64,000 nt of DNA from Clostridia bacterium (GCA_035409945.1 DAONQC010000006.1:12570-76569); one strand, 5' to 3'. Counted from the first letter of the stretch, positions 15,232 to 41,359 are shown. The notes: generated by a model from the letters alone, not told the origin. A program made the numbers and translations.

Positions 15232-15242
15232 ACGCATCTCCT

Positions 15243-17216: not shown

Positions 17217-19256
17217 ATGCAAAACAATGTAAATAACTATGATGAACATAATATCAAGGTTCTAAAGGGTCTTGAAGCCGTCAGGAAAAGACCGGGAATG
17301 TACATTGGGACAACAGACATAAAAGGTCTCAATCATTTAATTACCGAGATAGTTGATAACTCAGTAGACGAAGCGCTAGCTGGCTATTGTACTCACATTG
17401 AGGTTGTGCTAAAAGACGATGGCTCTTGCTCAGTAAGTGATAACGGAAGGGGAATCCCAACTGGTATCGTTAAAGAAGAAGGGTTGTCTGGTGTAGAAGT
17501 TGTTTTAACAAAACTTCACGCTGGTGGTAAGTTTGGAGAAGGTGGTGGATACGCCATATCCGGAGGTCTACACGGCGTTGGTCTTTCAGTTGTTAACGCA
17601 TTAAGCGATTGGCTAGTAGCAGAAGTTAGACAACACGGTAATATATATCGCCAAAGATTTGAAAAGGGCGAGAAGAAGTCCGAACTGGAAATAGTTGGAA
17701 AAACCGATGAAACAGGAACTACAATTTCTTTCCTTCCCGATAAAACTATTTTTGACTCCATCATATTTGATTATGAACCAGCAAAAAGAAGACTTAGAGA
17801 GCTTGCGTACTTGAATAAAGGGTTGAGAATAACTATACGAGATGAAAGAACTGTTAGAGAAACAAAGTTAGATGCCGATCAAGAAGAAAAAAAATCAGAA
17901 GAACGGATGGCAGACGAAAAACCTGCAGTAGTAGACGAAACTCAAACAGAAGAGAAAGAACACAAGATAATAGAGGAGTCATTCTGCTATGAAGGTGGAA
18001 TTATTGATTATGTAAAAGCTCTTGGAAGAGGAAAAGAATCGGTTCTACCCGAAATATTATACTTCTACGAAGAGATTCCTAACGCTGATCCTAAAAAAGT
18101 TAGCGATATAATAGAAATTGCTATGCAGTATAACACTGGATACGATGAAAAAATTGTAACATTTGCTAATAACATTAAAACCGAAGAGGGTGGTCAACAC
18201 TTAGATGGCTTTAAAGCAGCATTAACAAAAGTGTTTAATGATTACGGTGCTATTGCAAAGATATTAAAAGACAATGAAAAACTTTCAGGGGAAGACGTAA
18301 GAGAAGGATTAATTGCCATCATTAATGTCAAATTGCCTGAACCTCAATTTGAAGGGCAAACAAAGACTAAACTAGGTAATGCGACTATGCGTAGAAATGT
18401 AAATGCTACCATTACAAAATGTTTAGGCGAATACCTCGAAGAAAACCCCAAGGAAGGAAAAGAACTAATAACTAAGAGTGTTAACGCACAAAGAGCAAGA
18501 GAAGCCGCTAGAAAGGCAAGAGAGAGCTTTAGAAAGGGTGCTATGGAAAGTAGCGCACTACCAGGAAAACTAAGCGATTGTATCGATACCGATCCTTTAA
18601 ACTGCGAAATCTATCTTGTTGAGGGTGATAGCGCAGGCGGTACAGCTAAAACAGGCAGAGATAGAAAGTATCAAGCAATTCTACCACTTAGAGGTAAAAT
18701 TTTAAACGTTGAAAAAGCTAGGCTTGTAAGAGTTTTAGATAACGAAGAAATACGTGCTATGTTTACAGCATTTGGCTGTGGATACGGCGAAGATTTTGAT
18801 ATAACCAAAAGAAGATACGATAGAATCATATGCATGACCGACGCGGACGTTGATGGAAGCCATATTAGAACATTACTCATTACCTTCTTTTATAGGTTTA
18901 TGAGACCTCTTGTAGAGAATGGTCATGTATACATCGCACTACCTCCTCTATACAGAGTATCCGTAAGGGGAAAGGAAGATAAGTACATATATAATGATGA
19001 AGAATTGCAAGCGTATACAGCTAGTTTAGGTAACACAAAGTACACTTTACAGAGATATAAGGGTCTTGGTGAAATGAACGCACACCAGCTATATGAAACG
19101 ACTATGAACCCCGAGACTAGAACGTTACTTAGAGTAACGGTAGAAGATGCAGAAGAAGCAGATGCAACCATATCAATGCTCATGGGCGATGATGTGGAAG
19201 TAAGAAGAGAGTTCATTGAAAACAATGCAACGATGGTTAAGGAGCTTGATATATAA
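17217..19256 (+). CDS. gyrB: DNA gyrase subunit B
   Basis: GHKL ATPase motifs (DNGRGIP, GGLHGVG), Toprim EGDSAGG and DADVDGSHI, and a gyrA partner. Contains an acidic insertion of about 40 aa (aa 214-254). Confidence 0.97.
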
Positions 19257-22896: not shown

Positions 22897-23505
22897 ATGG
22901 AAACTATTGAGTCTCAAAAAAAAGAAAGGCGTGTAAAGAGAATTGCCTCAACAAGAAATATAGTATATTCAGCACTGTTTACGGCATTAATTGTCGCAGG
23001 TAGTTATATTACTGTAGATATACAACCAGTGCCATTTACGATGCAACTCCCTTGTGTGCTACTCACATCATTATTACTAGGTCCTATCTGGGGAACAGTA
23101 AGTGTTTTTGTCTATATTGCTTTAGGCTTAATGGGAGTGCCAGTGTTTTCTAGTAAGGGAGCAGCAGGCATTACATACGTGCTAAAGCCTTCATTTGGTT
23201 ACATAATTGGTTTTTTAGTTGCAAGTGTTGCTGTAGGGACAATAGCAAAATCAAAAGAAAATGATAAACTAAAACCTTATCAAAGGATGATTATTGCAAA
23301 CACAGTAGGTGTTCTTATCATCTATACAATAGGAATGATATATATGTATCTAATTTTAAAGTTGTACCTTGCAACTGAAGTTACTGTAAAAACTATTTTT
23401 CTATCTGGATTTTTGATTTTTTTACCCAAAGAAATTGTGTTTATATTTTTAACAGCATTGCTTGCATCCAAGCTAAAACCATATGTAAAAATGATACAGG
23501 AATAG
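22897..23505 (+). CDS. bioY: Biotin ECF-transporter S component BioY
   Basis: Six-TM protein with the TxQxxxVLL.G...G pattern (PFTMQLPCVLLTSLLLGPIWG) and KPSFGYIIGF. Confidence 0.85.
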   Translation: METIESQKKERRVKRIASTRNIVYSALFTALIVAGSYITVDIQPVPFTMQLPCVLLTSLLLGPIWGTVSVFVYIALGLMGVPVFSSKGAAGITYVLKPSFGYIIGFLVASVAVGTIAKSKENDKLKPYQRMIIANTVGVLIIYTIGMIYMYLILKLYLATEVTVKTIFLSGFLIFLPKEIVFIFLTALLASKLKPYVKMIQE

Positions 23506-23805: not shown

Positions 23806-24417
23806 TTAGGAGCTAAAAGAGGTTAGTAATGACCGTATGGTTTCAAATAGAGGCGTAGGGAAGTTTACTCCCCAGCGGTTGGATAGAAATTTTAGTTCAG
23901 TTTCATATTCACAGATTAGGTCTTTAAAATTGGGTTTTAAAAAGCTACATAAAGAAGTTATAAAATCAACCTTAATATGTTTCTCAACTTCATATAGTGA
24001 GGCAAAGGCCATAATTTTTGCGATGTAACATTCCAGTGTTCCTGCAGTACATTCCTCAAAGTCAACTCGTACACACTTGAAATCAGGGGTAACTATATAG
24101 TTTCTAAAGTTTTCGTCAAAGGTAATTTTTTTTGTAGTTGAGTGAATGTAAAAAATTGTATTTGCTAGAGATTCAGCAAGTTTTTTAGAAACTTCTGTAT
24201 CGGAACTAAGGTAATAATCTAAAAGTAAGGTTCCCTTTACATAGCTCATTTCTATACAGTTATCGGATAGTTGGTTTATGAAACTAGGGGCAAATTCCCC
24301 CTGTAATTTTTTAAGCATGCTAACTTCTGTCTTTAGTGCTTCTTTATTACTAAAGGTTTTTTCAATGTTGCTATCTTTATTTAGTACTACGTTATTTTTT
24401 CTACTTGCAAAAACCAT
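23806..24417 (-). CDS. Hypothetical protein with degenerate protein-kinase-like layout (last gene of ECF operon)
   Basis: Bud32/RIO-like N-lobe pattern (EKTF...LKTEVSMLKKL...MSYVKG) and a VDFEEC (DFG-like) segment. The catalytic HxD...N is not conserved (NFRNYIV). Confidence 0.45.
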   Translation of the reverse strand: MVFASRKNNVVLNKDSNIEKTFSNKEALKTEVSMLKKLQGEFAPSFINQLSDNCIEMSYVKGTLLLDYYLSSDTEVSKKLAESLANTIFYIHSTTKKITFDENFRNYIVTPDFKCVRVDFEECTAGTLECYIAKIMAFASLYEVEKHIKVDFITSLCSFLKPNFKDLICEYETELKFLSNRWGVNFPTPLFETIRSLLTSFSS

Positions 24418-24466
24418 ATTTGACCTATGTTAAGTACATTGATTTCTCGGGTTTAGAGTTAGATAG

Positions 24467-25219
24467 TTATTTACTATCATCAACAAACTCAAGGCAGATT
24501 TTTCCGCCTTTTTGAAATCCTTTTAATTCTTTAACTACGCCAGTAACCACATTTTTAAGTATGGATTCAACAAAAGGGACCATATAAATATTTTTGTCAT
24601 TAATAGTAAGTTTTACTTTGCTGTTTTTTAAAACACAGGCATTTATATCTACTTCGCCTTTTAAGTATTTAGAAAGAAAGGTTCTACAGTCCATACCACA
24701 CGCACTACAGCACTCTTTATCAATATCGTACATAAGAGATGGAGTTTTTTCGATTATTAAATCTACTAGTTTTTTGGTGTCGGTTATGCCATTTATTATT
24801 GGAAGATCTTTGTATGTCCCAGTATGAGCGTTAGCAAACCTTCCACTTATAGCAAAGGTGAGTGGGGATATTTTAGGCTCTCCATCTTCTGTTGCAACTG
24901 CGATTTCTGGAACAACTGCATCATGCACTCCCTCGAGTATAACAAAGTCCTGATTGTAATGAGAAAGAAGGTCATATATAGGCATATGTCCTTTATATAA
25001 AACATCAGTTTCGTTAGCCGAACGTGCAGTTACAGTATCCGAACCTGCCTGTCTATGTCTCCAGGTGTTTTTGCCTTCTGTGTCAATAGCAAAGGCTTCA
25101 AAGTGTATTTCTTTGACTGAACCTACAGTATATCCACGTGCTATTAGCTCCTTGATAATGTGCTCAATCGTGGCTGTTTTGCCACTACCACTTAGTCCTG
25201 TGATTGAAAAAACTTTCAT
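24467..25219 (-). CDS. MobB-like P-loop protein with extra Cys-rich C-terminal domain
   Basis: MKVFSITGLSGSGKTA Walker A and IDTEGKNTWRHRQAGSDTV, as in MobB. The C-terminal part carries CCSACGMDC...C. Confidence 0.6.
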   Translation of the reverse strand: MKVFSITGLSGSGKTATIEHIIKELIARGYTVGSVKEIHFEAFAIDTEGKNTWRHRQAGSDTVTARSANETDVLYKGHMPIYDLLSHYNQDFVILEGVHDAVVPEIAVATEDGEPKISPLTFAISGRFANAHTGTYKDLPIINGITDTKKLVDLIIEKTPSLMYDIDKECCSACGMDCRTFLSKYLKGEVDINACVLKNSKVKLTINDKNIYMVPFVESILKNVVTGVVKELKGFQKGGKICLEFVDDSK

Positions 25220-25330
25220 GTCTTTCTCCTGTTATTGTTAATCGTTACATGTACTTGGCAATTATATAACCTGCCATTAGTTTTCATTATATCATAAAAA
25301 TAATATAGTTTATTAATCACTCATATATCA

Positions 25331-25511
25331 CATATTTTCTAAAAATGCACTCGCCTTGTATGTTTGAGATCCTATCTGCTATTCCTAGGTGGAAGATCAT
25401 TCTTTGGGTGTACTCTCGCTATGAATGTTCAAAGATCTGTCCACTGTGACACTACACTGAAATACTCGAAGGTATATCCATTGTTGCACTTAAGATGATA
25501 ACGGACATTTT
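25331..25511 (-). repeat. 3' echo of the ecfT gene plus short degenerate repeats
   Basis: ATTTTCTAAAAATGCACTCGCC at 25334 matches ATTTTCTAAAAATGTACTAGTAC at 25507 (the real stop region), a period of 173 nt. The interval holds units of about 30-37 nt beginning AGATC/AGGTA and a dispersed-repeat copy at 25471-25508. Confidence 0.65.
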
Positions 25512-26261
25512 CTAAAAATGTACTAGTACACCATGGAAATACATGCCAGCTAAAAATACTCCAGCAAACAGTAGGGAGATAACAACAAGGAGGCAGTCTA
25601 TTGCTCCCATTTTTAATTCTCTTAGCATAGTTCTTTTTTTGTATGCTCTAAAACCTCTAACTTGCATGCTTTTTGCAAGCTCTTCACTTCTCATTATGCA
25701 GCCAGATATTGTGGGGGATATAAGGTATGCATACACTTTTACTTTTTTAGCAAGATTTAGTTTTTTAATATCAATTCCTCGCATAGCGATAGCATTGAGT
25801 CTACTTCTAAATTCCTCACTAAATATGGGTATAAATCTAAGCGATATGCTGGTCATAAAAGCAAGTTCATATGGCATTTTCAATTTAAGTAAGGCATCAA
25901 TCATTTCTCTTCCTTCTGTGCTTGCGGCAATTAAACCAGAAAGGAGTATAATGCTCATCCTTAGAATAAACTCTAGCGAAAACTGTAAGCCTTTGGTAGA
26001 TAGTAGGGCAATATTTCCAATAGGAATGAGAACGGTTCCACCTTTAATAGTCAGGCTTTGTACAATTGCAATAAATAGCAGTACTCCTAGAAAGTGTCTA
26101 AGTCTTTTAATTGCCATTAATAGTTCGGTTTTGAGACATAAGTTAATTAAGATACTAAGGAGTAGTATAATGCTAAGATAAATAACATCTTTAGCAAGCA
26201 CTGCTAAGGTAGTTAGTAACACAATAAATAATAACTTTACACGAGGATCAATTTTTTTCAT
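25512..26261 (-). CDS. ecfT: ECF transporter T component (EcfT/CbiQ family)
   Basis: Multi-TM protein with the conserved ARG motifs (AIAMRGI, SMQVRGF). Overlaps the upstream ATPase gene. Confidence 0.85.
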   Translation of the reverse strand: MKKIDPRVKLLFIVLLTTLAVLAKDVIYLSIILLLSILINLCLKTELLMAIKRLRHFLGVLLFIAIVQSLTIKGGTVLIPIGNIALLSTKGLQFSLEFILRMSIILLSGLIAASTEGREMIDALLKLKMPYELAFMTSISLRFIPIFSEEFRSRLNAIAMRGIDIKKLNLAKKVKVYAYLISPTISGCIMRSEELAKSMQVRGFRAYKKRTMLRELKMGAIDCLLVVISLLFAGVFLAGMYFHGVLVHF

Positions 26262-26910
26262 CTAAAACACCTCCGTGTAAATGTAAATTAGTGACATTAT
26301 TAAGGCTAGATAAAAACTCCTCATCATGGGAAATAATGATAGCGCCACCACCTTTATTTACAAATCCGTTGATGAAAGTCGTGATAAATAGAATTCCTTC
26401 ACTATCTATAGAAGAAGTGGGCTCATCTAAAATCAAAAAATCTACATTACGACTCATTATGGTGGCAAGTGCTAGACGTTGCTTTTCACCTAAAGACATA
26501 GAGAGTGGGTATCTGTCTTCAAATCCAGACAAATTAAAATCTTTAAGTAGCAAGTTAATTTCAGCTCTTTTTTCATCAGTTAGTTCCTTTTTTAGTTCAA
26601 ACGGGAAAGTCAATTCCTCTATGACTGTCGGGGCAAAAAGTTGTAAATCTGGGTTTTGAAATAAATATCCAATACTATCAGCTCTTTTACCTGCGGATAT
26701 TTTTTTAGCATTAATGTCATCAAAATATATATCACCACTAGTTGGATGTAAAAGTCCAAGTATTAATTTTCCAAGCGTTGTTTTCCCAGCACCATTTGGA
26801 CCTTTCAATGCGTATAACTTACCCGTTTCAAAAGTGTAGGTTATGTTAGATAGCACGAAGGGAGATTTTTTATTGTACTTAAAAGAGAGGTTTTCTAACT
26901 TAATTTGCAT
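26248..26910 (-). CDS. ECF transporter ATPase (short, about 220 aa)
   Basis: GPNGAGKTT Walker A, LSLGEKQRLALA signature, LILDEPTS Walker B. Confidence 0.85.
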   Translation of the reverse strand: MQIKLENLSFKYNKKSPFVLSNITYTFETGKLYALKGPNGAGKTTLGKLILGLLHPTSGDIYFDDINAKKISAGKRADSIGYLFQNPDLQLFAPTVIEELTFPFELKKELTDEKRAEINLLLKDFNLSGFEDRYPLSMSLGEKQRLALATIMSRNVDFLILDEPTSSIDSEGILFITTFINGFVNKGGGAIIISHDEEFLSSLNNVTNLHLHGGVLDEKN

Positions 26911-26955
26911 ACATAACCTCCTTTTAGTGTTAATGTTAGTGGGGTATAGCCTAGA

Positions 26956-27621
26956 TTAAAGAACATAATTTTTACCTCTTTCAAGCGTAATTATTCTATT
27001 TGCAATTTTAAGGTCGTTTTCGTTATGGCTAATCATTACTACGCTTCCACCATTTTGGGCAAAATCTACGAGAATTTGTCGTATATCATCAATTTTTTCT
27101 TTATCTATTCTAGATGTAATTTCATCAGCTATTAAAACCTTCGGTTGCATGGTTAAAATAGAGGCTATTGCCACAAGTTGCTTTTCTCCACCTGATAGGG
27201 CATTGGTTTTAGCATGTTTTAGGTGTTCGATTTTACAGATTTTTAAAGCATCATTAATCCGCTTTTCCATTTCTTTTCTTTCGATATTTAAGTTTTCTGG
27301 GGCAAAAGCAAGTTCTTCAATTACAAGTGGTGAAAATAGCTGATTATCAGGGTTTTGGAAAATAAGGCCAAAAGCATTACATCTATCTGCAATGGTCATA
27401 TCGTTTAAATTGACGCCGTTATATAAAATTTCACCTCTAATATTATCACGCGCAAACTCTTCCTCAAATAGTCCAGCAAGACATAAGCAGAGGCTACTTT
27501 TACCGCTACCATTATGTCCTTTAAAACCAAGTATTTCACCTTCGTTTAGTTCAAACGAAAGGTTGTTAAAAATAACGGTTTTACCATACTTTAAGCCTAG
27601 TTTATTAACTTTTAAGTTCAT
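26956..27621 (-). CDS. ECF transporter ATPase (short, about 220 aa)
   Basis: GHNGSGKSS Walker A, LSGGEKQLVAIA signature, LIADEITS Walker B. Confidence 0.85.
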   Translation of the reverse strand: MNLKVNKLGLKYGKTVIFNNLSFELNEGEILGFKGHNGSGKSSLCLCLAGLFEEEFARDNIRGEILYNGVNLNDMTIADRCNAFGLIFQNPDNQLFSPLVIEELAFAPENLNIERKEMEKRINDALKICKIEHLKHAKTNALSGGEKQLVAIASILTMQPKVLIADEITSRIDKEKIDDIRQILVDFAQNGGSVVMISHNENDLKIANRIITLERGKNYVL

Positions 27622-27799
27622 ATGAAACCCTATTACATATAGTCTTATTTATTTATATTTATCCTAGTTCATTTAGTGTAAACGAACATTTATTGATATA
27701 TTCAAGTCTAGATTTTAAGCTCATACGCAATCCGATACATTTAGTATTGTTCGTTTACGCTTATTCTATTCATTTGGTTCAAACTAAATCCTATATACT

Positions 27800-28369
27800 C
27801 TATCCTATATTAACCTCGGTTAATAGTTTACATCTATGTTGTGAAAAAGTATCTGATACTCTTATTACTACATAAGGGCCACCATCTTCTCCTTCTAGGG
27901 TGTGGGCAGAAGTGACAATTCCTTTATTAAAATCAATACCATTTACTTTATATGCTATAAAGACATTATCGGGCGTGAGTACATCTTCAGCAGGGTATAA
28001 CTTGTTTGCACCATCACTTGCTTTAAAAGTAATGTTGCGAGCAATAGTCATATCTACATTTAGTGCCTTTAAGACGGCTTTAAGCTCAATCCCAGTGTAT
28101 GTTTTCTCAACTGGCTCACTAACGCTTGTATCATAAACATCTTTGAATGTTTTTTCCTCCACGCCTTCTAATGCAAGCAGTTCTTCTAAATTATATGAGC
28201 CAATCTCTTCACCATATGCAATAAGCCTTATCTTCTCTTGGGCATAGAGTTCACGTTGTGGAGCATTTGCTTTTAAGTAAAGTGGTAAAAATATGGCAAA
28301 GCCTACAATTAGTGCCGCTACTATAATTATTGCGATTATTACAGGTTTTGATAATGTTATCTTTTTCAT
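27800..28369 (-). CDS. N-terminally membrane-anchored exported protein with one copy of the operon's shared module
   Basis: TM helix PVIIAIIIVAALIVGFAIFL, then YTGIELKAVLKAL...FKASDGANKLYPAEDV...FIAYKVNG...GGPYVVIRV...KLLTEVNI. Confidence 0.55.
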   Translation of the reverse strand: MKKITLSKPVIIAIIIVAALIVGFAIFLPLYLKANAPQRELYAQEKIRLIAYGEEIGSYNLEELLALEGVEEKTFKDVYDTSVSEPVEKTYTGIELKAVLKALNVDMTIARNITFKASDGANKLYPAEDVLTPDNVFIAYKVNGIDFNKGIVTSAHTLEGEDGGPYVVIRVSDTFSQHRCKLLTEVNIG

Positions 28370-28590
28370 GAATTATCCCTTCCTTGCACGGATTTACACT
28401 TTCCGCGGGTTTTGATGATGTTATTTTTATTGAACCCTCTTCATATAGTCAGGTCTTTGTCTAATGTCTGTTTTGGTAGCGTTATTATTGTATCAATCTC
28501 TCCTAGAGGCTTTCAGCTAGTTTCTGTTTTGATAGTGCTGTTTTTATTAATTTCTCCTAGAGGTGTTTTTCATAGGTTATAGAAGTATAG
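28345..28590 (-). repeat. 5' echo: RBS plus first codons of the 27800-28369 gene, with three decayed upstream copies
   Basis: GTTTTG anchors at 28345, 28409, 28470 and 28526 (periods 64/61/56). Sense strand reads AGGGATAATTCATGAAAAAGATAACATTATCAAAAC versus AGGAGAAATTAATAAAAACAGCACTATCAAAAC and similar. Confidence 0.8.
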
Positions 28591-28600
28591 TTATTTCGTA

Positions 28601-30142
28601 TTAGTTATTGAAGACGAAGTAGGGCACATACATATCTTGATAGTCGAAGTAGCCGTGAGCGCCGTAAATATTCCCATCTTCATTGACAAATTCCATGTGT
28701 CCGTGGTCGGAAACCACAATTACTTTGCCATCAAATTGCATTTTTAAGTCTTTAACATAACTGTCTATTTCAATACATTTAATTTTAGCTTCTTGGCTTA
28801 ATGGACCATACTGGTGATTTACATCATCGATTTCATGGAAGTGCACAACGATTAAATCTGTCCCTTCGCTAATTGCGGTCTTGGCATTTTCATATGCCTC
28901 GTTATCGCTTAAAGAGTATATAGGGTCAATGCTGGTTATTATTAAATTCCCATTACCTTCTATATATTTCATCTTTATTTCTCTGTCATCAAACTCATAC
29001 ATATATTTTGCGAGGTAAAACACATCTGGGGGATAGGGTTTAAGTACAGCTCGGGTTTTATTAACGCTAAAATTAATACCAGTATGGCTAGGAGGCTGAC
29101 CTGTCAGCATTGATGCTAGAGCAACGGGAGATATAGCGTTGTATGTCGAAGTTGCGCATCCTTTAGATAGTGAGGCTTTTAAAATATCTAAATCGTTTTC
29201 GTATATGTTTGCCTGAATCCAAGAAAACCCATCGGTAATAATTAGCATAACTTTTTCGCTACTCTCTCCTGAAGTTTTCATCTCATCAAACACATCAAGA
29301 ATTGTCTTAGTTGCGTTAGTTGCGATACCTTTTATGCCATCTCCTGTATCTTTAACAATGATGTTTCTCCTTCGCCAAGCAAGTAAGGTATTGTCTGCAT
29401 TTTTAATAATATTTCCATTTGCTAAATACAAAACATTATTGTCTCTACCCGTGAATGAGTTCACAGTCATAGTGTCGGGCATATATTTATCAGCTCTATT
29501 TTTACCCATTATATTTTCTGCAGTCTTTGAAAACAGTTTTAGTTTTGCTTCCCCATATGTTATGAAATCAGTTTTTTCTTCTGTTAATATTTTGAGTCCA
29601 GGGGCATAGCGTAACCTGTAATCATTGGGGGTATTAGATAGGTCTTTTAATGGCTCTAGTATTTCGTTTGGATCTTTTGCGATTACAGTTATTTCGGAGA
29701 CGTTTTTAATATTTGTGCATTTTGGATAATTAGGTGCATGAACGTTAATAATTCCTTCTCCATCTGAATATAGATATATTTTATCTGTAAGATTTGCATC
29801 GATAAGGGCGCTTACGCCGTCAGTAGCGGATGTAATCATGAGATAGTTTTCGCTTGCTCTTAGCAATTGATGTTCGTTAATTTCATCTAAAAATGTCTGT
29901 AAATCCCAACCTTTATTTTTAATTTCTTCCCCATCCTTTTCGTATGTATATTCAACCATCTGCTCGTCATAAGCGGTACAAGAAAAACCGGCACCAACAA
30001 TGTCTCCATCAAATAAAATATGAGCTGGGGGAGTCTCATCATTATTTGGAAGCTCATTAGTTTCAGGCTTACACGCCGTAACTGTAATCACACAAATTAA
30101 AGCCATTAAAACTAAAAGTATAAATGCAAATTTTCTTTTCAT
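28601..30142 (-). CDS. Lipoprotein: N-terminal shared module fused to an NPP/alkaline-phosphatase-superfamily phosphodiesterase
   Basis: Lipobox VTAC. DGFSW, ISPVALASMLTGQPPSHTGI, HFHEIDDVNHQYGP and VSDHGH match nucleotide pyrophosphatase/phosphodiesterase metal and nucleophile motifs. Confidence 0.7.
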   Translation of the reverse strand: MKRKFAFILLVLMALICVITVTACKPETNELPNNDETPPAHILFDGDIVGAGFSCTAYDEQMVEYTYEKDGEEIKNKGWDLQTFLDEINEHQLLRASENYLMITSATDGVSALIDANLTDKIYLYSDGEGIINVHAPNYPKCTNIKNVSEITVIAKDPNEILEPLKDLSNTPNDYRLRYAPGLKILTEEKTDFITYGEAKLKLFSKTAENIMGKNRADKYMPDTMTVNSFTGRDNNVLYLANGNIIKNADNTLLAWRRRNIIVKDTGDGIKGIATNATKTILDVFDEMKTSGESSEKVMLIITDGFSWIQANIYENDLDILKASLSKGCATSTYNAISPVALASMLTGQPPSHTGINFSVNKTRAVLKPYPPDVFYLAKYMYEFDDREIKMKYIEGNGNLIITSIDPIYSLSDNEAYENAKTAISEGTDLIVVHFHEIDDVNHQYGPLSQEAKIKCIEIDSYVKDLKMQFDGKVIVVSDHGHMEFVNEDGNIYGAHGYFDYQDMYVPYFVFNN

Positions 30143-30376
30143 TTATTTTTCCTCGTCTACTACTATGCTATCCATCTGCCTAGCACGTCGCAATTTGAAT
30201 GTGCTCTCACTAGTTCCATTATCCACTTCGCCATTTTCATTTTGTCTTTCAGATACCTGCGCATCCTTCCAATGAAATCTTATTACTTAATTAGTCATTT
30301 TCATCCATTATCCTGCCAGCTATCTCAGCCTCGTCTGTCTAAGCTTTGGCATATTTTCATTGGCCAGATTGCTATA
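30143..30376 (-). repeat. 3' echoes (about 3 copies, 80-86-nt period) of the S-component gene
   Basis: TTAGTCATCCTCATCCATTATGATGC (30377, real end) versus TTAGTCATTTTCATCCATTATCCTGCC (30291). Weaker copies lie near 30205 and 30150. Confidence 0.75.
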
Positions 30377-31318
30377 TTAGTCATCCTCATCCATTATGAT
30401 GCTAATTATTTCTGTTTCTTCTAACCAATCATCATTTACCTTTCTATCTGCTTCAGTATCTAAACTGTCCTCATCGTCTAAGTCATCTATGTCGCTATTT
30501 GAATTATTTTCCTTATGTAATTTAGTGGTGCTAGCCAAGGATTTCTTTTCTTCCAAGTGGTCATAATTGGTCTTATTATCTATTTCAGCGCTTAAATTGA
30601 CATCATTTTTAAAATCATCTACATCACTATTTGAATTGTCTTCCTTTTGCAAATCGGTGGTGTTAGATAGGTTTTTTGCCTCTTCTTTGTCGATTTCATC
30701 CCAGCTGATAGTATCTTCATCTTTTCTTTTAATAGCGACTTTTGTTTTTACTCGGGATAGTATTCCCGTTTTAACAATTGCTAGATAGACTAGATACGCG
30801 ACTACTCCTCCAAGAGCACCAGACAACGAAGCTGCGAGTAGAGTGAAAAGCAAGGGGTATATGCTTAGTCTAAAAAACAAGAGGTTAGATCCGAAGGTTC
30901 CTGCCATATTGGCTAGTATTGTAGAAAGCATAAAGTGAAGTATATTATATCCATCTCGAGGCCTATATAAAAACACAAGTTCTACAAATATCGCTGGTGT
31001 CATGTATGTCAGTGCAGTCCACACTCCGTGACTTCCGGGTGCTCCAGTTGTAACCATAACTATCGTTTGAACTGCGGATATAAGCAGGGCAGAACCGCGT
31101 TTGCCAACAAGGACAATCGAAAGGGGAAGCCAAAGCATATATAGGCCACCAGCTAAAGCTCCTCCAGGGATGCCAAGAGGGCCTGTTATCATACGCACTA
31201 AATTACCAGCTACCACTTTAAAGCCTACGCTAGCAGCAGTAAGCATAGCTAGTAATACTAGGTCAAAAATACTAAATGCTTTCAACCCTTTTAGTTTGCG
31301 TTTTATAGGTTTATCCAT
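30377..31318 (-). CDS. ECF-transporter S-component-like membrane protein with long acidic repeat tail
   Basis: About 190 aa of Gly-rich TM helices (ITGPLGIPGGALAGGLYMLW...). The 110-aa acidic C-tail contains two repeats of about 44 aa (…NTTDLQKEDNSNSDVDDF… / …STTKLHKENNSNSDIDDL…). Confidence 0.6.
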   Translation of the reverse strand: MDKPIKRKLKGLKAFSIFDLVLLAMLTAASVGFKVVAGNLVRMITGPLGIPGGALAGGLYMLWLPLSIVLVGKRGSALLISAVQTIVMVTTGAPGSHGVWTALTYMTPAIFVELVFLYRPRDGYNILHFMLSTILANMAGTFGSNLLFFRLSIYPLLFTLLAASLSGALGGVVAYLVYLAIVKTGILSRVKTKVAIKRKDEDTISWDEIDKEEAKNLSNTTDLQKEDNSNSDVDDFKNDVNLSAEIDNKTNYDHLEEKKSLASTTKLHKENNSNSDIDDLDDEDSLDTEADRKVNDDWLEETEIISIIMDEDD

Positions 31319-31417
31319 ATATGTTCTCTACTACACCGTTCTTGTAAATCTGTAATATACAAGGTTTTATCTAACTGTTGTTAACCCCATTTATAGGCTA
31401 GTTGTATTATATCTCAT

Positions 31418-31448
31418 GACACAAAGGCGCCTCAATAAAGAGGCGTCC
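31418..31448 (-). terminator. Weak intra-operon hairpin/terminator
   Basis: GGCGCCTC (31426-31433) / GAGGCGTC (31440-31447). On the minus strand it is followed by TTTGTGT. Confidence 0.35.
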
Positions 31449-31494
31449 TATTATGTTTAGTTGTGTCTAAATGAATGTGTGGATTCAATAGTTT

Positions 31495-32856
31495 TTAAGC
31501 CACCGCTTCGTTTAAAACGATTTTTGCTACCTTTTTATTGACGGACTTACTAGCGGTGCTAGTGCTATCAGATAGGTATCTTGGAGAACTGCTATCTGCT
31601 TCGAACTTTCCATCATCTGTTATTTTACCGATTGTGATGTATGCGTTATCCATATTATCAGTTTCGGTTGTATAGTTGCCTGTGGAATCATAGGATGTAA
31701 CTTTAGTTATTTCTGGTATTGTGACTTTCAGTTTTGGAGTAATATTAGATAGCTTATATGCAAGATATATTACTGAAGTTTCATTTCCCATAGAATTAAC
31801 GGTGGTCATTGTAACATTTTCTCTTGCTACTTTTTTCAAGACATCATTAGTTATTGTTTTGAGAAGAGTAGCATTATCATATAGTTCAACATTTACCTCA
31901 ACAGTGGTTAAGGGATCGTTGAATATGACTTTCGCTATTTTTTTGTTAATAGATTTACTAGAATTGCTGGTGCTGTCAGATATATATCTAGGGCCATCGG
32001 CATCTTCAACAAACTTACCGTTTTCTACAAAGCCTATTGAGATGTATGCATTAGTGATGTTTTCTGCTTCAACTAAATAATCATCGGTAGCGCGAGAAAA
32101 TACGCTAGTAATTTCTGGGAGTGTGAAATTTTTTAGTTTTGGAGTAATGTTAGATAGCTTATATGCAAGATATGTTATGGAAGTTTCTGTTCCCATAGAA
32201 TTAACAGTGGTCATTGTAACATTTTCTCTTGCTGTTTTTTTCAATTCTTTATTAGTAATGGTGCCTAAAAGGGTAAGGCTATCATACAATTCAACGTTAA
32301 CATTAACAGTGGCTAATGGGTCATTAAATATGACTTTTGCAAGTTTTTTATTAATTGATTTGCTTTCGGTACTTTGGCTGTCAGATACATATCTAGGAGA
32401 ATCTGCATCAGCTACAAACGCGCCGTCTTCTTCTAAACCTATAGTGATATATGCATTGGCAATATTTTTAGCCTCGACAATATAGTTATCTGAAGCAACA
32501 GCATAGACACTATTAATTTCTGGTAGTGTAAGGTCAAGGGCGGTAACTATGTCTGTAAGCTTATATGCAATGTATACCACCGAGGTTGTAGTGCCATAAT
32601 CGTTTACGGTATTCATACTAAGTTTATGTTGCTCAACATTTGCAAACGAAGCATTTACGGCAGTCCCTAGCAGTTCAATACCATTATATATCTCAACATT
32701 GATATTTAAATCAGCAGGAATTTGATAAGCATTCGGGGTATTATTAACATCGTCTGCTGGATCGGTTTCGACCTTATTGCATGCAAATAAAGTCATGCTT
32801 AGCACTAATACTGAAATAACAAGAAATAGTGCGAGTAATTTTTTGTTCATTTTCAT
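31495..32856 (-). CDS. Lipoprotein made of three tandem copies of the shared module
   Basis: Lipobox LFAC. Three 135-aa repeats each end ...GPRY(I/V)SDS...SKSINKK(I/L)AKVIFNDPL. Confidence 0.6.
   Translation of the reverse strand: MKMNKKLLALFLVISVLVLSMTLFACNKVETDPADDVNNTPNAYQIPADLNINVEIYNGIELLGTAVNASFANVEQHKLSMNTVNDYGTTTSVVYIAYKLTDIVTALDLTLPEINSVYAVASDNYIVEAKNIANAYITIGLEEDGAFVADADSPRYVSDSQSTESKSINKKLAKVIFNDPLATVNVNVELYDSLTLLGTITNKELKKTARENVTMTTVNSMGTETSITYLAYKLSNITPKLKNFTLPEITSVFSRATDDYLVEAENITNAYISIGFVENGKFVEDADGPRYISDSTSNSSKSINKKIAKVIFNDPLTTVEVNVELYDNATLLKTITNDVLKKVARENVTMTTVNSMGNETSVIYLAYKLSNITPKLKVTIPEITKVTSYDSTGNYTTETDNMDNAYITIGKITDDGKFEADSSSPRYLSDSTSTASKSVNKKVAKIVLNEAVA
31500..32715 (-). 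repeat. Intragenic 405-nt tandem repeat x3
   Basis: AATATGACT anchors at 31922 and 32327. Antisense shadow ORFs at 31721-32080 and 32123-32485 translate almost identically. Confidence 0.85.
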
Positions 32857-32900
32857 TTTCTTCTCTCTCCTTTGTTTATATATATTTGCCTAAAGGATTA

Positions 32901-33053
32901 GGCTATTTCCTTAAGTTTTAGTGTTGTATCACTACATCCGATTAACAATGCTTGCTAGTTCTTTATTGGCTATTTCCTTGGGTTAGTGTTATATCACTAC
33001 ATCCGATTAACAATGCTTGCTGGTTTTTATCGGCTATTTCCTTAAGCTTATTG
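32901..33053 (-). repeat. 3' echoes (2 copies, about 65-nt period) of the 438-aa lipoprotein gene
   Basis: GGCTATTTCCTTAAG... units start at 32901, 32968 and 33032; the third contains the real stop. The two echoes are about 90% identical to each other. Confidence 0.8.
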
Positions 33054-34337
33054 TTATATCTCTACATTTATGGCTTTAAATACGATTGATTTACCTTCGT
33101 AATTAAGAGTGTATTTACCATCTTCATTTTTTGTGACTTTAGCGCCTAGAATTTGCTCATATGACACATCTACTTTTGTATTATCAATTTTCGTTACCGA
33201 ATACTCTGTATAAGGTTTAAACATGTTAAGTAAAATTAGCAAATCTTTTACATTAAACGAGCCATCAGTTTTTCCATCTACATCTGGGTCATAACGTTTC
33301 ATTGCAACATCAAAAGAGACAATTGCAGAGTGAAATACAGATATAGAAAGAACATTTTTGACTGACATACCGTCAGGGAAAGCGGGACCGTCTAAAATAG
33401 GTGTTCTAGTTAGTGTCCAGCTAGCGTCAGCATCACAAATGCCAGATGTTAATATGTATGCATTGCTATATATGTCGTAGGTTGCCCATTTTTGATATTC
33501 TCTGTATGTGTCAGAGCCTGAAATATAGTCCCAAGCTACTACACTCATTTTATCTATTTCTTGTACACCTTTTAATATGTTGGTTGGACCTATCATTTTT
33601 GAAATGTCTAACCCATAGTACGTGTAGTTACCGTCACTTTCTTCTTTTGTATATTGTCCGCCATATGTAGTAGAGTTTATTTCATCAAGAGAATAGAGGG
33701 AGTATACGGTAGGAGTCTTTAGTAACTCAGTAGAAAAATCGATTTTGTATAAATATTTAACCCAGGTGTTTGCAACTTGGTCATGGAATATAGCTCTTAA
33801 AGCACCACTGCCTGATTTTATTGTTAAAACTTCGCCGTCTAATTCAAGAGCAATTACCATCTTGCTCCCACGACCATCGCTATCGAATACTTCATCAGTG
33901 GCAACTGCTACGTAGCCATCTGTTCCATAAAGGGATAAACTTCCATATACATTAATTGGAGCACTTTCTGTATAGTCAGAAAGTAAGTCTTCTAAATATA
34001 CGCCTTTAACAGTATGTGGAATTAAATTACCATCATCGTCTTGTTTATCACTTGCAACAGCGGGGTTATCTTCATCAAATATAACGGGTTTAGTTTCATA
34101 AAGTGTTTTAATTGTAGATTTCTTTATTACAACATCTTCGAGTAAATTCCCATCTACTTTCTGTAATCCAGATAGCGTAAGGGTGTAGTCATCGTCCGTA
34201 ACGGGGGCAGTGTTATTAGTATTATTGGTATTATCAGGTTCAGTATCGGGCTTATCGTTACAACCGACAAAAAATGTCATAGAAATAATGAGTGCAAATA
34301 CAATACTAAAAAGAATAACAGTCTTAAGTTTTTTCAT
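33054..34337 (-). CDS. Lipoprotein with two copies of the shared module and a dockerin/EF-hand-like segment
   Basis: Lipobox FFVGC. VKGVYLEDLL...YGTDGYVAV...IALELDGEVL...GALRAIF...NTWVKYLYKIDF, and DVDGKTDGSFNVKDLLILL. The MKKLKT start (34337) follows GGGGAG. Confidence 0.6.
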   Translation of the reverse strand: MKKLKTVILFSIVFALIISMTFFVGCNDKPDTEPDNTNNTNNTAPVTDDDYTLTLSGLQKVDGNLLEDVVIKKSTIKTLYETKPVIFDEDNPAVASDKQDDDGNLIPHTVKGVYLEDLLSDYTESAPINVYGSLSLYGTDGYVAVATDEVFDSDGRGSKMVIALELDGEVLTIKSGSGALRAIFHDQVANTWVKYLYKIDFSTELLKTPTVYSLYSLDEINSTTYGGQYTKEESDGNYTYYGLDISKMIGPTNILKGVQEIDKMSVVAWDYISGSDTYREYQKWATYDIYSNAYILTSGICDADASWTLTRTPILDGPAFPDGMSVKNVLSISVFHSAIVSFDVAMKRYDPDVDGKTDGSFNVKDLLILLNMFKPYTEYSVTKIDNTKVDVSYEQILGAKVTKNEDGKYTLNYEGKSIVFKAINVEI

Positions 34338-34500
34338 AATAAAGAGCTCCCCATAAAATAAAAAGTTCACGTTCCCACGTGAAAAGAGCTCTTTAGAAGA
34401 GAGAGTGTTCTTTTCGCAATGGAAGGGTAATCCCTTTCGAAGTTACCCCCGGTCTAAACCCATAGCATTGCCTTAGGTGTTTAGACTCGAACATGTCTAT
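34338..34500 (-). promoter_or_regulatory. Structured 5' leader (riboswitch-like, class not recognised) of the ECF-lipoprotein operon
   Basis: 8-bp helix GTCTAAAC/GTTTAGAC (34452-34459 / 34479-34486), hairpin GGGTAA...TTACCC, possible pseudoknot GCAATG/CATTGC, terminator-like TTCACGT-GGGA-ACGTGAA plus T-run (34350-34383), and AAAGAGCTC able to pair with the GAGCTCTTT overlapping the RBS. Confidence 0.5.
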
Positions 34501-34530
34501 ATGATATATAAATATACAGTATTTTGTCAA
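34501..34530 (-). promoter_or_regulatory. Putative promoter of the ECF-lipoprotein operon
   Basis: Perfect TTGACA (34525-34530, minus strand), 18-nt spacer, TATCAT (34501-34506). Confidence 0.4.
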
Positions 34531-34571: not shown

Positions 34572-34810
34572 CTTACTGCGACAACTAGCATTACCATGTT
34601 TTGCAGTCGGTTATCACACCCTGCTCGATGTCTTAGCTCCCTCTCAACTAACTATGACAACTAATATGAACCTGTCTTGCCTGATGGGCTATCTACCGCT
34701 GGCTTACTATGACAACTAACATATCGTGTCTTGCTCAATGACCTATATGCCACATAACTTACTATAACAAGTGCTATCATGTCCATGATAAATTTCTTCC
34801 AATCGCAGAT
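34572..34810 (+). repeat. Four degenerate tandem copies of the dispersed intergenic repeat
   Basis: CTTACT(G/A)(C/T)GACAACTA... units start at 34572, 34648, 34703 and 34758 (periods 76/55/55). Confidence 0.75.
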
Positions 34811-40206: not shown

Positions 40207-40267
40207 TTAATGTTGCTAACCATTTAAATTGGTTAAATTTAGACAACATTATTATACGAGGTACAAA
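40207..40267 (+). promoter_or_regulatory. Conserved hairpin 5' leader, copy C (upstream of flavodoxin gene)
   Basis: Outer stem AATGTTG (40209-40215) / CAACATT (40244-40250); inner stem TAACCA (40217-40222) / TGGTTA (40230-40235); then ATTATACGAGG. Confidence 0.7.
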
Positions 40268-40798: not shown

Positions 40799-40834
40799 AT
40801 TGACAATATTATTTGCTGTAGAGATAATATCATT

Positions 40835-41359
40835 ATGAATAAGCAAATAAAAAAATTAATAGTTGTTGTTTTATTAGTAGCCTGCGTGGCGCTAGTAGTT
40901 TTTAATGTAGCTTGTAAAAAAGAGCAAGATAATTATGCACCAATGATTGATAATGCTAGAGAGTATGTGGGCGTTTCTATTTCTCCTGAGAAAAAAAATA
41001 TTGCAAATTATTGCAGGATAGAAAATTACTATACAAGCGCTGAATATAAGGTTATAAGAGTGATTGCTGAAAGAGGTTATGCAGGCGAGATAGAACTACT
41101 TGTCTTATTAGAAGGTACTACGCTAAAGAAAATAAAGGTCATAAAGTCGGATGAAACTCCAGGCCATGGAACAAAGTGTTTTGAGGATAAGTTTTTAGAG
41201 CAGTTTTATGAAAAAGATCTTTCAACTATTGAGCCACTAATAGGCAAGGAAGAGAAAAACGAAAGTGGCGATATCTTGTATGTGACAGGCGCCACCAAGA
41301 CCTCAAGAGCAATAATATCTGCGATTAATGCAGTTATATTGTTTATTAAGTCATTATAG
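40835..41359 (+). CDS. FMN-binding-domain lipoprotein
   Basis: Signal peptide with Cys (NVAC) and the VTGATKTSRAI motif (the flavinylated Thr motif of the RnfG/NqrC-type FMN_bind domain). Confidence 0.7.
   Translation: MNKQIKKLIVVVLLVACVALVVFNVACKKEQDNYAPMIDNAREYVGVSISPEKKNIANYCRIENYYTSAEYKVIRVIAERGYAGEIELLVLLEGTTLKKIKVIKSDETPGHGTKCFEDKFLEQFYEKDLSTIEPLIGKEEKNESGDILYVTGATKTSRAIISAINAVILFIKSL

Follow-up and report, generated by a model that had tools for sequence, protein, structure and literature searches.

A riboswitch-controlled ECF operon with surface mini-SUOX proteins in Clostridia: a candidate system for scavenging molybdopterin-type cofactors

The window, the whole stretch of 64,000 nucleotides of Clostridia bacterium DNA that was analysed, carries on its minus strand an operon running from 34337 down to 23806. 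In order of transcription, its genes encode lipoprotein A (33054..34337; 427 aa, start MKKLKT, lipobox FFVGC), a mini-SUOX protein whose homologues hold the first operon position in relatives; lipoprotein B (31495..32856; 453 aa, lipobox LFAC), which has three mini-SUOX modules in tandem; an ECF S component of the YkoE family (30377..31318); a lipoprotein (28601..30142; lipobox VTAC) in which an N-terminal mini-SUOX module is fused to a C-terminal NPP-type phosphodiesterase; a membrane-anchored single mini-SUOX module (27800..28369; 189 aa); the ATPases EcfA (26956..27621; 221 aa) and EcfA' (26248..26910; 220 aa); EcfT, the transmembrane coupling component of the CbiQ family (25512..26261); a MobB P-loop protein with a C-terminal Cys-cluster domain (24467..25219); and, last, a minimal kinase-like protein (23806..24417; 203 aa), the final two being predicted to be cytoplasmic. 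An earlier, sequence-only reading had counted eleven co-oriented genes, but translation of the window gives ten minus-strand ORFs of at least 60 aa in this interval; an eleventh gene was not seen, because the 292-nt gap at 25220-25511 holds just ORFs of 27-34 aa. The exported set that it described, three proteins with a lipobox and one with an N-terminal anchor, can be read directly from the translations.

The order [module proteins]-S-NPP-module-EcfA-EcfA'-EcfT-MobB-kinase recurs, almost gene for gene, in the fetched genomes of about 80 species from Clostridia and Tissierellia, and relatives of the S component occur in 505 species genomes. Across 93 loci, the NPP fusion is present in 81, MobB in 76, the kinase in 67, and lipoprotein B in 25. 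The single-module gene always lies directly before EcfA. Furthermore, fusions link the parts physically in some relatives: the S component is joined through a TM helix to a module (P0085, with P0088 of the same type) or to NPP (P0071). A search of the accessible literature found no published description of such a system, in keeping with the earlier remark that no described ECF system with this accessory set was known.

The operon is under riboswitch control. What had been noted as a structured leader RNA is a Moco/Wco riboswitch aptamer (RF01055; 34391..34504, minus strand; E 4e-8), which at 47 bits lies above the curated Rfam threshold (gathering score 36 bits) and retains the conserved core. 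Immediately upstream is a promoter-like site, TTGACA-18-TATCAT (34501..34530, minus strand), which with 11 of 12 consensus matches is the region's best and is named by consensus match alone. The aptamer is of the P3-less variant, its P3 positions being deleted in the RF01055 alignment. Of 80 related loci, 65 have a homologous aptamer ahead of the operon, and these elements show strong covariation: the share of paired cells is 85.9%, versus 54% or less in slid controls, and 26 of 31 pairs carry compensatory changes. The P3-less class has been associated with tungsten-cofactor metabolism by Regulski et al. 2008 (PMC2408646). At one related locus (L004), a second riboswitch of this class precedes an AOR gene, and at five loci tungsten-dependent AOR genes adjoin the operon; the class and these neighbours point to the tungsten cofactor no less than to Moco. 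However, since this class is also found ahead of enzymes that use the cofactor, riboswitch control alone is no proof of uptake.

Leader folding and a terminator scan place an intrinsic terminator hairpin (34366..34383, minus strand; TTCACGTGGGAACGTGAA then CTTTTTATTT), part of the expression platform, downstream of P1 and without overlap with it, and in the fold a helix able to sequester the ribosome-binding site comes after this hairpin. In a Christensenellales homologue, the leader has the antiterminator/terminator layout typical of an OFF switch, and the leader architecture, as judged from sequence, looks like an OFF switch.

The ECF core proposed in the sequence-only reading is confirmed by profile matches: the S component to PF09819 (E 2.6e-11), EcfA and EcfA' to PF00005 (E 1.3e-27 and 5.7e-30) and TIGR04520 (E 1.9e-53 and 1.2e-41), and EcfT to PF02361 (E 9e-31) and TIGR02454 (E 6e-21). 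All 88 S-component homologues belong to PF09819, whose characterised member we take to be YkoE, a thiamine-binding component of a thiamine/HMP importer, not a Mo/W-cofactor transporter. Within that family, the S components of these operons form a clade of their own, with 40-97% identity across 80 fetched loci and a marginal match to YkoE itself (E 8.4 to structure 5EDL, in a sequence search of the PDB); the protein in the window also has an acidic, lineage-specific C-terminal tail of about 110 aa. Beyond the PF09819 S component, the group I YkoEDC-type importers share with this operon dedicated S, T, and two A genes in one transcription unit, a cofactor-sensing riboswitch in the leader, and a scheme, proposed here, of trimmed-vitamin import followed by a cytoplasmic kinase. 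They differ in that their riboswitch is of the TPP rather than the Moco/Wco class and in that the operon here also encodes four surface proteins with a common binding module, together with a surface phosphodiesterase, MobB, and a kinase. To our knowledge, extracytoplasmic binding proteins are not part of classical ECF importers.

The copies of this module were tested by profile-profile comparison (hhalign) with a small-module family that comprises 115 proteins. All three repeat units of lipoprotein B match this family (P 97.2%, E 3.5e-11), units 2 and 3 being 79% identical as DNA, as does the N-terminus of the NPP fusion (P 93.5%, E 2.2e-7). Lipoprotein A has one clear module (residues ~60-203, E 4e-17), and one or two further copies match weakly (E ~3e-3). 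Thus, of the copy numbers first assigned to the four proteins (1, 1, 2, and 3), the single copies and the triplet hold, whereas the pair in lipoprotein A is a weak match.

The resemblance to SUOX/YedY, which had been suggested without a profile search, is borne out at the level of the fold. Matches of PF00174 to the single-module protein (E 1.2e-4) and lipoprotein A (E 2.7e-4) fall just below the Pfam gathering threshold, and PF00174 matches 21 of 28 module-family members (best E 1.3e-7). The AlphaFold model of the single-module protein (pLDDT 93.7) retrieves sulfite oxidase (E 4e-6) and YedY in Foldseek, over a range of E 4e-6 to 8e-4, and PruR with E 4e-6 and TM 0.63-0.68. With sulfite oxidase and YedY (MsrP, PF00174), the module has in common this fold, weak but consistent Pfam matches, and an alignable C-terminal G-G-P...K region. 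However, these enzymes carry a Mo-ligand Cys where the modules have a Y-D-T-S..S motif, they span about 170 aa or more plus a dimerisation domain rather than about 145 aa, and they are exported by Tat, whereas the lipoprotein signals here are Sec-type. A conserved Cys at the Mo-ligand position was found in no SUOX-like protein family of the 93 loci. In size and in the absence of this Cys, the module is instead most like PruR of Agrobacterium and Vibrio (PDB 7KOS, 7KOM), an extracytoplasmic, truncated SUOX fold of about 145 aa, at a sequence identity of 13-16%. PruR is a single soluble periplasmic pterin-binding protein, paired with DcpA/DTB signalling proteins in Proteobacteria; the module here is multiplied, lipid- or membrane-anchored, fused to NPP or the S component, and paired with a transporter in Firmicutes under a Moco riboswitch. 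Judged by its model, the module looks like a pterin binder.

The NPP domain (PF01663, E 2.7e-16) bears out the fusion first reported, and its predicted catalytic residues are kept: a comparison of 47 homologues shows conservation of D304, S/T338, D439, H443, D479, H480, and H496, a set made up of the metal ligands and the Ser/Thr nucleophile. The MobB assignment (PF03205, E 1.6e-22; NF011064 'MobB/FeS domain', E 6.9e-34) likewise agrees with the earlier description; its Walker A motif is conserved among homologues, and Cys170, 171, 174, 178, and 195 are each retained by 57-58 of 65. The Cys cluster is a probable Fe-S domain. In contrast, the kinase-like protein had been called degenerate, and of this only the likeness stands, since across 50 sequences K20, D101, N106, and D119 never vary and conservation of E31 and E121 is 90% or more. 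Among these 50 relatives, 31 match RIO1 and 28 match APH; the family profile matches Bud32 (8UNK, E 6e-6), and the AlphaFold model finds protein kinases in a structure search. No catalytic residue is lost, and the protein groups with the Bud32/RIO/APH kinases.

Other genes recur at the operon in relatives. ThiF/MoeB genes lie next to or inside it at seven loci, including L010, where such a gene stands directly before the first module gene and NPP is absent. At four loci, a FecCD/Peripla_BP_2 importer, a type known to work only as an importer, is encoded within the same riboswitch operon. FMN_bind-SUOX fusions, NapH-like Fer4_5+FMN_bind proteins, and FAD_binding_2+FMN_bind reductases are also found in or beside the operon. 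An FMN_bind protein is beside or inside it in 21 other loci; in the window, an FMN_bind lipoprotein outside the operon (40835..41359, plus strand; PF04205, E 2e-12) bears a TGAT flavinylation-type motif, is 36% identical (E 1e-30) to the operon-associated protein of relatives, and may be a detached accessory.

To explain these findings, we propose that the operon encodes a dedicated group I ECF system that scavenges an external molybdopterin-type cofactor (the W or Mo cofactor, or the metal-free pterin), a reading to which we give a probability of about 0.5. If correct, it would be an undescribed bacterial system for scavenging molybdopterin/tungstopterin cofactor. In this model, when the cofactor is low inside the cell, the P3-less riboswitch would permit transcription read-through, and surface lipoproteins with one to three Cys-less mini-SUOX modules would bind the pterin cofactor, much as in the NEAT haem relay. 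The module-NPP lipoprotein would then trim the bound cofactor, removing GMP/CMP from dinucleotide forms and/or phosphate, and the membrane-anchored single module would pass the product to the YkoE-type S component, the part that CbiN plays for CbiM. After import by EcfAA'T, the Bud32/APH-like kinase would trap or re-phosphorylate the product in the cytoplasm, and the MobB/Fe-S protein would relay it to metal loading or to insertion into an enzyme. In many relatives, flavinylated FMN_bind and NapH-like Fe-S proteins probably keep the pterin reduced or re-reduce it. The outline suggested in the sequence-only reading (capture, nucleotide cleavage, ECF import, and handling of a nucleotide-linked cofactor, with a pterin/molybdopterin dinucleotide as one candidate) gains support from the riboswitch, the conserved neighbourhood, and the SUOX fold, while the direction of transport, the exact substrate, every hand-over step, and the dinucleotide as the cleaved species are still what we infer.

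Import is favored because the S component falls in the YkoE family PF09819 rather than in the exporter family PF07456, because a FecCD/Peripla_BP_2 importer shares the riboswitch operon at four loci, and because an extracellular nucleotide pyrophosphatase, an importer, and a cytoplasmic kinase are combined as they are in the salvage of NAD and flavins. The AOR and ThiF/MoeB genes that adjoin the operon likewise connect it with the use and synthesis of the cofactor. In the roles proposed here, the extracellular pyrophosphatase, vitamin transporter, and trapping kinase are shared with Haemophilus NAD salvage (NadN, PnuC, NadR) and RibU flavin salvage, although the protein families and the cofactor are different. 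The Isd/NEAT haem relay also comprises several surface-anchored proteins with one to three copies of one ligand-binding module, whose genes accompany those of a membrane importer and are shut down in nutrient excess; the comparison is no more than an analogy, as the fold, ligand, transporter (type II ABC versus ECF), and regulator (Fur versus riboswitch) differ. Several points weigh against scavenging. Molybdopterin is very labile outside proteins; we know of no bacterial Moco importer and of no description of a kinase acting on dephospho-molybdopterin. Furthermore, the partners of FMN_bind, NapH-like, and FAD_binding_2 type in relatives could serve extracytoplasmic redox enzymes just as well as substrate conditioning, and the truncated pocket of PruR is thought to be too small for Moco (PMC13259868).

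The main alternative is that the ECF complex works outward, exporting a MobB-supplied pterin cofactor to SUOX-fold proteins that leave the cell by Sec and cannot receive it inside; NPP would unmask a nucleotide-protected exported form, and the loaded modules would be redox proteins fed by the FMN_bind/NapH-like partners. ECF-mediated cofactor export does exist: the Listeria FAD exporter EetB-FmnA (PMC9973259) is an ECF-type complex of Firmicutes that handles a cofactor and is colocalised with extracytoplasmic flavinylated redox proteins. The Sec-type lipoprotein signals, which mean that any cofactor would need to be added outside the cell, would suit export, as would the flavin-based partners in relatives, MobB as a cytoplasmic Moco-handling protein, and the riboswitch class that also precedes cofactor-using enzymes. 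Nevertheless, we regard export as unlikely. The SUOX-like families lack the conserved Mo-ligand Cys, the kinase would have no obvious role, and the FecCD-type importers point the other way; moreover, with an OFF-switch-like leader, a cofactor-consuming system would be shut off exactly when the cofactor is plentiful. In addition, the S component here is of the importer family PF09819, and EetB, the sole known ECF exporter S family, belongs to PF07456. As a system, EetB-FmnA also handles another cofactor, a riboswitch, NPP, MobB, and kinase have not been reported for it, and an ApbE gene was not seen in the operons examined here.

Somewhat less likely again is the import of another Mo/W species: a precursor such as cyclic pyranopterin monophosphate (cPMP), an oxidised pterin breakdown product that is then re-reduced, or a W/Mo chelate. 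The riboswitch ties the operon to cofactor status only and not to a particular substrate, and ThiF/MoeB genes, above all at L010 without NPP, would fit a precursor still needing sulfuration; the flavin-based redox partners would fit re-reduction, and the co-occurring FecCD-type importer is of the kind used for chelates. However, the substrate of MPT synthase is cPMP with an intact cyclic phosphate, which opening by a phosphodiesterase would destroy. Moreover, Mo/W oxyanion uptake uses ModA-, TupA-, or WtpA-type binding proteins, and a pterin-binding fold, phosphodiesterase, and kinase have no role in it.

Finally, it is improbable that the operon serves pterin sensing or some function outside the Mo/W cofactor, with PruR-like modules that bind monapterin or another small reduced pterin, an ECF complex that takes up an unrelated vitamin, for example a precursor of thiamine, and a riboswitch that is a divergent aptamer for another ligand: the module is as near to PruR as to SUOX enzymes in Foldseek and YkoE binds thiamine, but a DcpA-type or sensor-kinase partner is absent from the loci examined, the aptamer scores above threshold with its core intact, the S components stand apart from YkoE in their own clade, and MobB, AOR, and MoeB are recurrent neighbours.

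The minus strand of the window from 34530 to 23806 forms one transcription unit, which begins with a promoter-like site, a riboswitch match and a terminator hairpin and continues through ten open reading frames. Lipoprotein A (33054-34337) comes first, followed by lipoprotein B (31495-32856), the substrate-binding (S) component of an ECF transporter (30377-31318; PF09819, the YkoE family, E 2.6e-11), a lipoprotein that carries a phosphodiesterase domain of the NPP type (28601-30142; PF01663, E 2.7e-16), and a membrane-anchored protein of 189 aa (27800-28369). The sixth, seventh and eighth ORFs encode EcfA, EcfA' and EcfT (the last PF02361, E 9e-31). The ninth is a MobB protein (24467-25219; PF03205, E 1.6e-22) whose C-terminal domain is rich in Cys and whose best NCBIfam match is of the MobB/FeS type. 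The tenth is a 203-aa protein (23806-24417) that by itself has no Pfam or NCBIfam match; NCBI lists its exact sequence under a Clostridia bacterium MAG, as a hypothetical protein. A sequence-only reading had counted eleven genes; however, a search for the eleventh found none. It is postulated that this operon serves the uptake and salvage of a molybdopterin-type cofactor, a reading to which we give about even odds (roughly 0.5).

The intergenic gaps of the window operon are 176-292 nt long; in relatives, by contrast, these genes are directly adjacent or overlap. Local direct repeats lie in the gaps at 32918-33028, 25325-25524 and 30282-30422; between the genes for lipoproteins A and B, a 46-nt unit is repeated with 93% identity 65 nt apart, and the spacer downstream of the S gene contains a 55-nt copy of the 3' end of that gene. 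At 31406-31447, in the space that separates lipoprotein B from the S gene, lie a promoter-like TTGAGG-18-TATAAT and a GC-rich hairpin that resembles a terminator on either strand; this segment could act as an attenuator inside the operon or as a second promoter for its transporter half.

The leader begins with a near-consensus promoter-like site (TTGACA-18-TATCAT, 34501..34530, minus strand), followed by a 114-nt RF01055 element (34391-34504, minus strand) that scores 47 bits against a gathering score of 36, and then by a terminator hairpin (34383-34366, minus strand) and a helix able to sequester the ribosome-binding site. Copies of RF01055 in relatives score 42-67 bits with the covariance model and thus also exceed the gathering score of 36. 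In the window copy and in four related copies aligned to the Rfam model, the P3 model positions are deleted. Because the P3-less class of this riboswitch tracks tungsten-cofactor metabolism (Regulski et al. 2008), the window leader is assigned, from its aligned sequence, to the class associated with the tungsten cofactor (Tuco). Strong covariation supports the conserved secondary structure: across 66 distinct riboswitch sequences, 85.9% of cells are paired versus 39-54% in slid controls, a fraction that is somewhat inflated since the alignment was fitted to the model, and compensatory changes occur at 26 of the 31 riboswitch pairs. Rfam detects the riboswitch ahead of the operon in four related loci fetched from other genomes (L001, L004, L007 and L016). 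A covariance model of our own, built from the copies found by Rfam, places it ahead of the operon in 64 of 80 searched loci, or 65 of 80 when L016, seen by Rfam only, is counted; because this model missed at least one riboswitch that Rfam detects (L016), 65 of 80 is a lower bound. Most of the riboswitch-negative loci are cut off upstream. The Christensenellales leader has an antiterminator that draws on the 3' core of the aptamer, a predicted layout that shows a classic OFF design.

One related locus, L004, holds two P3-less Moco-class riboswitches (4596-4712 and 7757-7871), one belonging to the aldehyde:ferredoxin oxidoreductase (AOR) gene and lying ahead of an AOR-MoaD-MoeB unit, and the other ahead of the ECF operon. 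The fold predicted for the AOR leader has the CCUCC element of the aptamer paired with the ribosome-binding site, which hints at an ON logic, opposite to that of the terminator-type leader of the transporter operon. In the window, the repeat GTTAGTTGTCATAGTAAG is found in five copies with at most 3 mismatches, versus 0.08 expected by chance (34572-34720, 2632-2649 and 3862-3879); three of these lie just upstream of the riboswitch promoter, and the repeat looks like a REP-like intergenic element.

The four exported proteins had been read as carrying one repeated module that resembles the sulfite oxidase (SUOX)/YedY-type oxidoreductase domain. That the module recurs in all four is borne out by profile comparison, although significance required deeper profiles, made from the fetched loci: three units of lipoprotein B match the module family (E 3.5e-11), as does the N-terminus of the NPP lipoprotein (E 2.2e-7), and lipoprotein A has one strong copy (E 4e-17) with further copies that are weak. 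A narrow HMM made from the 189-aa family missed the modules of the three other exported proteins, and a shallow hhalign comparison of the three lipoprotein B repeats gave only E 0.25.

The resemblance to SUOX holds for the fold and fails for the enzyme. An AlphaFold model of the 189-aa protein (28 homologues) has a mean pLDDT of 93.7, and a Foldseek search of the PDB with this model returned the Moco domain of chicken sulfite oxidase (E 4e-6, TM 0.61 on query) and PruR (7KOM/7KOS; E 4e-6, TM 0.63-0.68 on target), with a probability of 1.0 for sulfite oxidase, nitrate reductase, SorT, YedY and PruR. These relatives emerged from the fold search alone, since PDB sequence searches with the module, singly or as a profile, returned no SUOX or PruR protein. 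PF00174 scores 22.1 and 21.0 bits on two window proteins, under the 24-bit cut-off, and matches 21 of 28 family members at E<=0.01 (best 1.3e-7). The region that aligns with YedY Cys102, in an alignment that used a YedY sequence checked against 1XDQ and whose register is uncertain by 1-2 residues, reads Y-D-T-S-x-S and has Cys in none of the 28 sequences; furthermore, no SUOX-like protein cluster from the 93 loci has a conserved Cys at the position of the Mo ligand. Thus, with the fold in agreement, the Mo-ligating Cys absent from every cluster and the Pfam scores below threshold, the modules are not filed as SUOX enzymes.

PruR binds reduced pterins without a metal (PMC13259868). The module resembles it in being of similar size and extracytoplasmic (a signal peptide or anchor is present) and in having a truncated SUOX fold with no Cys, and the modules may work as PruR does. 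However, the DcpA/DTB sensor that partners PruR is missing from the window and from the 93 loci, where the partner is always the ECF set. That the operon is devoted to PruR-like signalling, or to an unrelated vitamin, fits its regulon and neighbours poorly and is improbable.

Residues D304, S/T338, D439, H443, D479, H480 and H496 of the NPP domain are conserved among 47 homologues (position 338 being Thr in 24 and Ser in 23), so that the domain has the putative metal ligands and Ser/Thr nucleophile of the alkaline-phosphatase superfamily, with roles assigned by motif position only. MobB scores 80.3 bits with PF03205 (threshold 26.6) and 81.3 with TIGR00176 (threshold 76.2) and has kept its P-loop (G8, G13, K14 and T15 are conserved), while 57-58 of 65 homologues retain Cys170, 171, 174, 178 and 195. 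Compared with the MobB/FeS subtype (PRK14494), its best model is NF011064, a match that spans the whole protein and scores 117 bits, where the equivalog cut-off is 418; by these scores, the window protein is of MobB/FeS-like architecture and probably of a different orthologous group.

The 203-aa protein had been taken for a degenerate kinase. This is not the case: across 50 sequences of the family, K20, D101, N106 and D119 do not vary, and conservation of E31 and E121 is 90% or higher, giving the beta3 Lys, the alphaC Glu, D101-x4-N106 and D119-F-E121. Of the relatives, 31 of 50 match RIO1 and 28 of 50 match APH (best 3.3e-10), and a PDB search with the family profile returns Bud32, amicoumacin kinase and Rio2; a moderate AlphaFold model (pLDDT 73) matches protein kinases with E about 1e-4 but a TM of only about 0.45. 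The full catalytic set together with the RIO1, APH and Bud32 matches thus marks it as a minimal but intact kinase. A small-molecule substrate is plausible, favoured by the APH and amicoumacin-kinase matches but not by those to Bud32 and RIO. Homologues hold the same last position in the operons of distant relatives (36% and 29% identity).

The association of these genes is widespread. A scan with one genome per species found S relatives in 505 genomes, the best 80 of which include cultured Sedimentibacter, Alkaliphilus, Anaerovirgula, Wukongibacter, Anaerosalibacter and Acidaminobacter; the homologue clusters occur in Clostridia, Christensenellales and Bacillota, and the locus closest to the window operon is that of a biogas-reactor Clostridiales MAG. 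When families are called with HMMs that take the window proteins as seeds, nearly every untruncated locus shows the order [module protein(s)]-S-NPP-module-EcfA-EcfA'-EcfT-MobB-kinase. Fusions also occur: two S homologues (P0085 and P0088) join S to an extra TM helix and a module, and a third (P0071) joins S to a lipoprotein-like segment and NPP. Redox partners accompany the operon in many relatives, among them a NapH-like protein with Fer4_5 and FMN_bind domains, encoded directly upstream within the operon (27 loci), a small FMN_bind lipoprotein (21 loci) and a reductase with FAD_binding_2 and FMN_bind domains (9 loci); ThiF/MoeB is present in 7 loci and the tungsten enzyme AOR in 5. In the window, the homologue of this small FMN_bind lipoprotein (40835-41359; 36% identity to the protein of those 21 loci, E 1e-30) is detached, lying 6.5 kb away on the other strand. 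It follows a flavodoxin-like gene (the pair spans 40229-41359) and has a flavinylation-type TGAT motif.

In Sedimentibacter-type loci, the riboswitch operon grows to about 14 genes and includes extra module proteins whose length reaches about 1300 aa. In some relatives, the operon is headed by genes for surface proteins of 2000-2800 aa that carry SUOX-like modules (L007, 2036-8230; L011, 1-6495), with Reg_prop repeats and Flg_new domains in the former and SLH domains in the latter. Four loci (L058 at 2629-16172, L073, L078 and L089) encode, in the same riboswitch operon and directly upstream of the S gene, a Peripla_BP_2 binding protein with a FecCD permease and an ABC ATPase, and would thus place two importers in a single cofactor-controlled unit. 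Three small proteins not assigned to a family (about 136-143, 247-252 and 249 aa) are encoded in this same upstream stretch of the four loci, and a Pfam scan of the 249-aa protein gave no match.

The transporter itself is of the dedicated kind. The S component matches PF09819 above the gathering score, as do all 88 homologue clusters, and a T component and two PF00005 ATPases, whose best NCBIfam match is an ECF ATPase model, are encoded in the same operon; the system is thus a group I ECF transporter by its S signature and by its T component and two ATPases in one operon. Both ATPases, of about 220 aa, fall short of the NCBIfam equivalog cut-offs. The order S...a-a-T is kept in about 80 loci. 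The S component of the window ends in an acidic, repetitive, low-complexity tail of about 110 aa (30377-30720; residues about 200-313), which is absent from most relatives, themselves 183-198 aa long.

As for the direction of transport, the characterised PF09819-family member, YkoE, is an importer component, and FecCD-type systems are import-only. The S family, the co-encoded FecCD importer and the OFF-type leader all favour import. The only ECF exporter S family that we know of is that of EetB, which belongs to PF07456, versus PF09819 here, and an EetB-type flavin exporter was rejected on this difference. The main rival to uptake is nevertheless a system that exports cofactor in order to load Sec-exported redox proteins of the SUOX fold, for which ECF-mediated FAD export in Listeria (PMC9973259) is a precedent and with which the FMN_bind and NapH-like partners fit well. 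However, this explanation has to contend with the missing Mo ligand as well as with the S family, the FecCD importer and the OFF-type leader, and it leaves the kinase unexplained; consequently, export is considered unlikely.

Within the uptake and salvage reading, a model can be drawn whose transport, binding and enzymatic steps we infer throughout. A cofactor riboswitch would repress an ECF importer of the vitamin type. At the surface, a relay of multiple modules might concentrate a scarce ligand, much as NEAT proteins do for haem, and the surface nucleotide pyrophosphatase would trim the cofactor. The anchored single module, which is always beside the ECF genes and sometimes fused to S, could load S as CbiN loads CbiM. 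In the cytoplasm, the kinase would trap the imported cofactor, by analogy with NAD and flavin salvage, and in relatives the flavin partners may hold the oxygen- and oxidation-sensitive pterin in its reduced state. In its full form, this would be the first dedicated pathway for Mo/W pterin uptake and salvage in any organism, comprising a module relay, an ecto-phosphodiesterase, an ECF importer, a novel (dephospho-)molybdopterin kinase and a MobB/Fe-S chaperone, the whole set being under repression by a tungsten-cofactor riboswitch; this fuller claim is held more tentatively than uptake and salvage as such. The ligand might instead be another Mo/W-related compound (cPMP, an oxidised pterin or a metal chelate), a proposal that draws on the MoeB neighbours and on a variant locus without NPP (L010) and that we rate somewhat below export. 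Molybdate or tungstate as the substrate was rejected, given that no ModA-, TupA- or WtpA-type protein is present and that the pterin fold, the phosphodiesterase and the kinase would have no role in oxyanion uptake.

The working logic proposed for this operon is that of riboswitch-controlled ECF vitamin importers. It differs from described group I ECF systems in its riboswitch class, its extracytoplasmic binding modules, its ecto-phosphodiesterase and its MobB and kinase genes. The cofactor is assumed to be supplied by de novo synthesis, and the textbook picture of ECF transport has no extracytoplasmic binding modules. To our knowledge, no bacterial transporter of Moco, Wco or molybdopterin has been described, and a search of the accessible literature returned none; nor was a published description of the present system found there, and targeted reading of a flavinylation survey (PMC8238504) gave none either.

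If the uptake and salvage reading holds, the operon would be the first defined route by which an exogenous Mo/W-pterin cofactor crosses a bacterial membrane, a long-standing question that a defined gene set makes directly testable. Anaerobic communities would then trade a labile Mo/W cofactor much as they do corrinoids, and uptake by about 500 fermenting species of Clostridia and Tissierellia would make the pterin cofactor a shared "community vitamin". Such a system would also supply a transport target for the P3-less riboswitch class, assign a function to the MobB/Fe-S subfamily and to an orphan family of mini-kinases, and present an ECF transporter that works with extracytoplasmic binding modules, contrary to the textbook.

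Elsewhere in the window, a Pfam scan of ORFs to about 49.6 kb found no Moco genes. The annotated neighbours include parB, gidB, gyrB/gyrA, bioY, the pst-phoU phosphate system and toxin-antitoxin genes. The presence of parB, gidB, gyrB/gyrA and a cluster of four tRNA genes (1613-3532, 17217-21757 and 51992-52667) suggests a position near the replication origin of the chromosome. A solitary gene for BioY, the biotin ECF S component, converges on the end of the operon from the plus strand (22897-23505), with no ECF module of its own nearby. The window also holds three DUF4143 ATPase genes and an AbiEi/AbiEii toxin-antitoxin pair.
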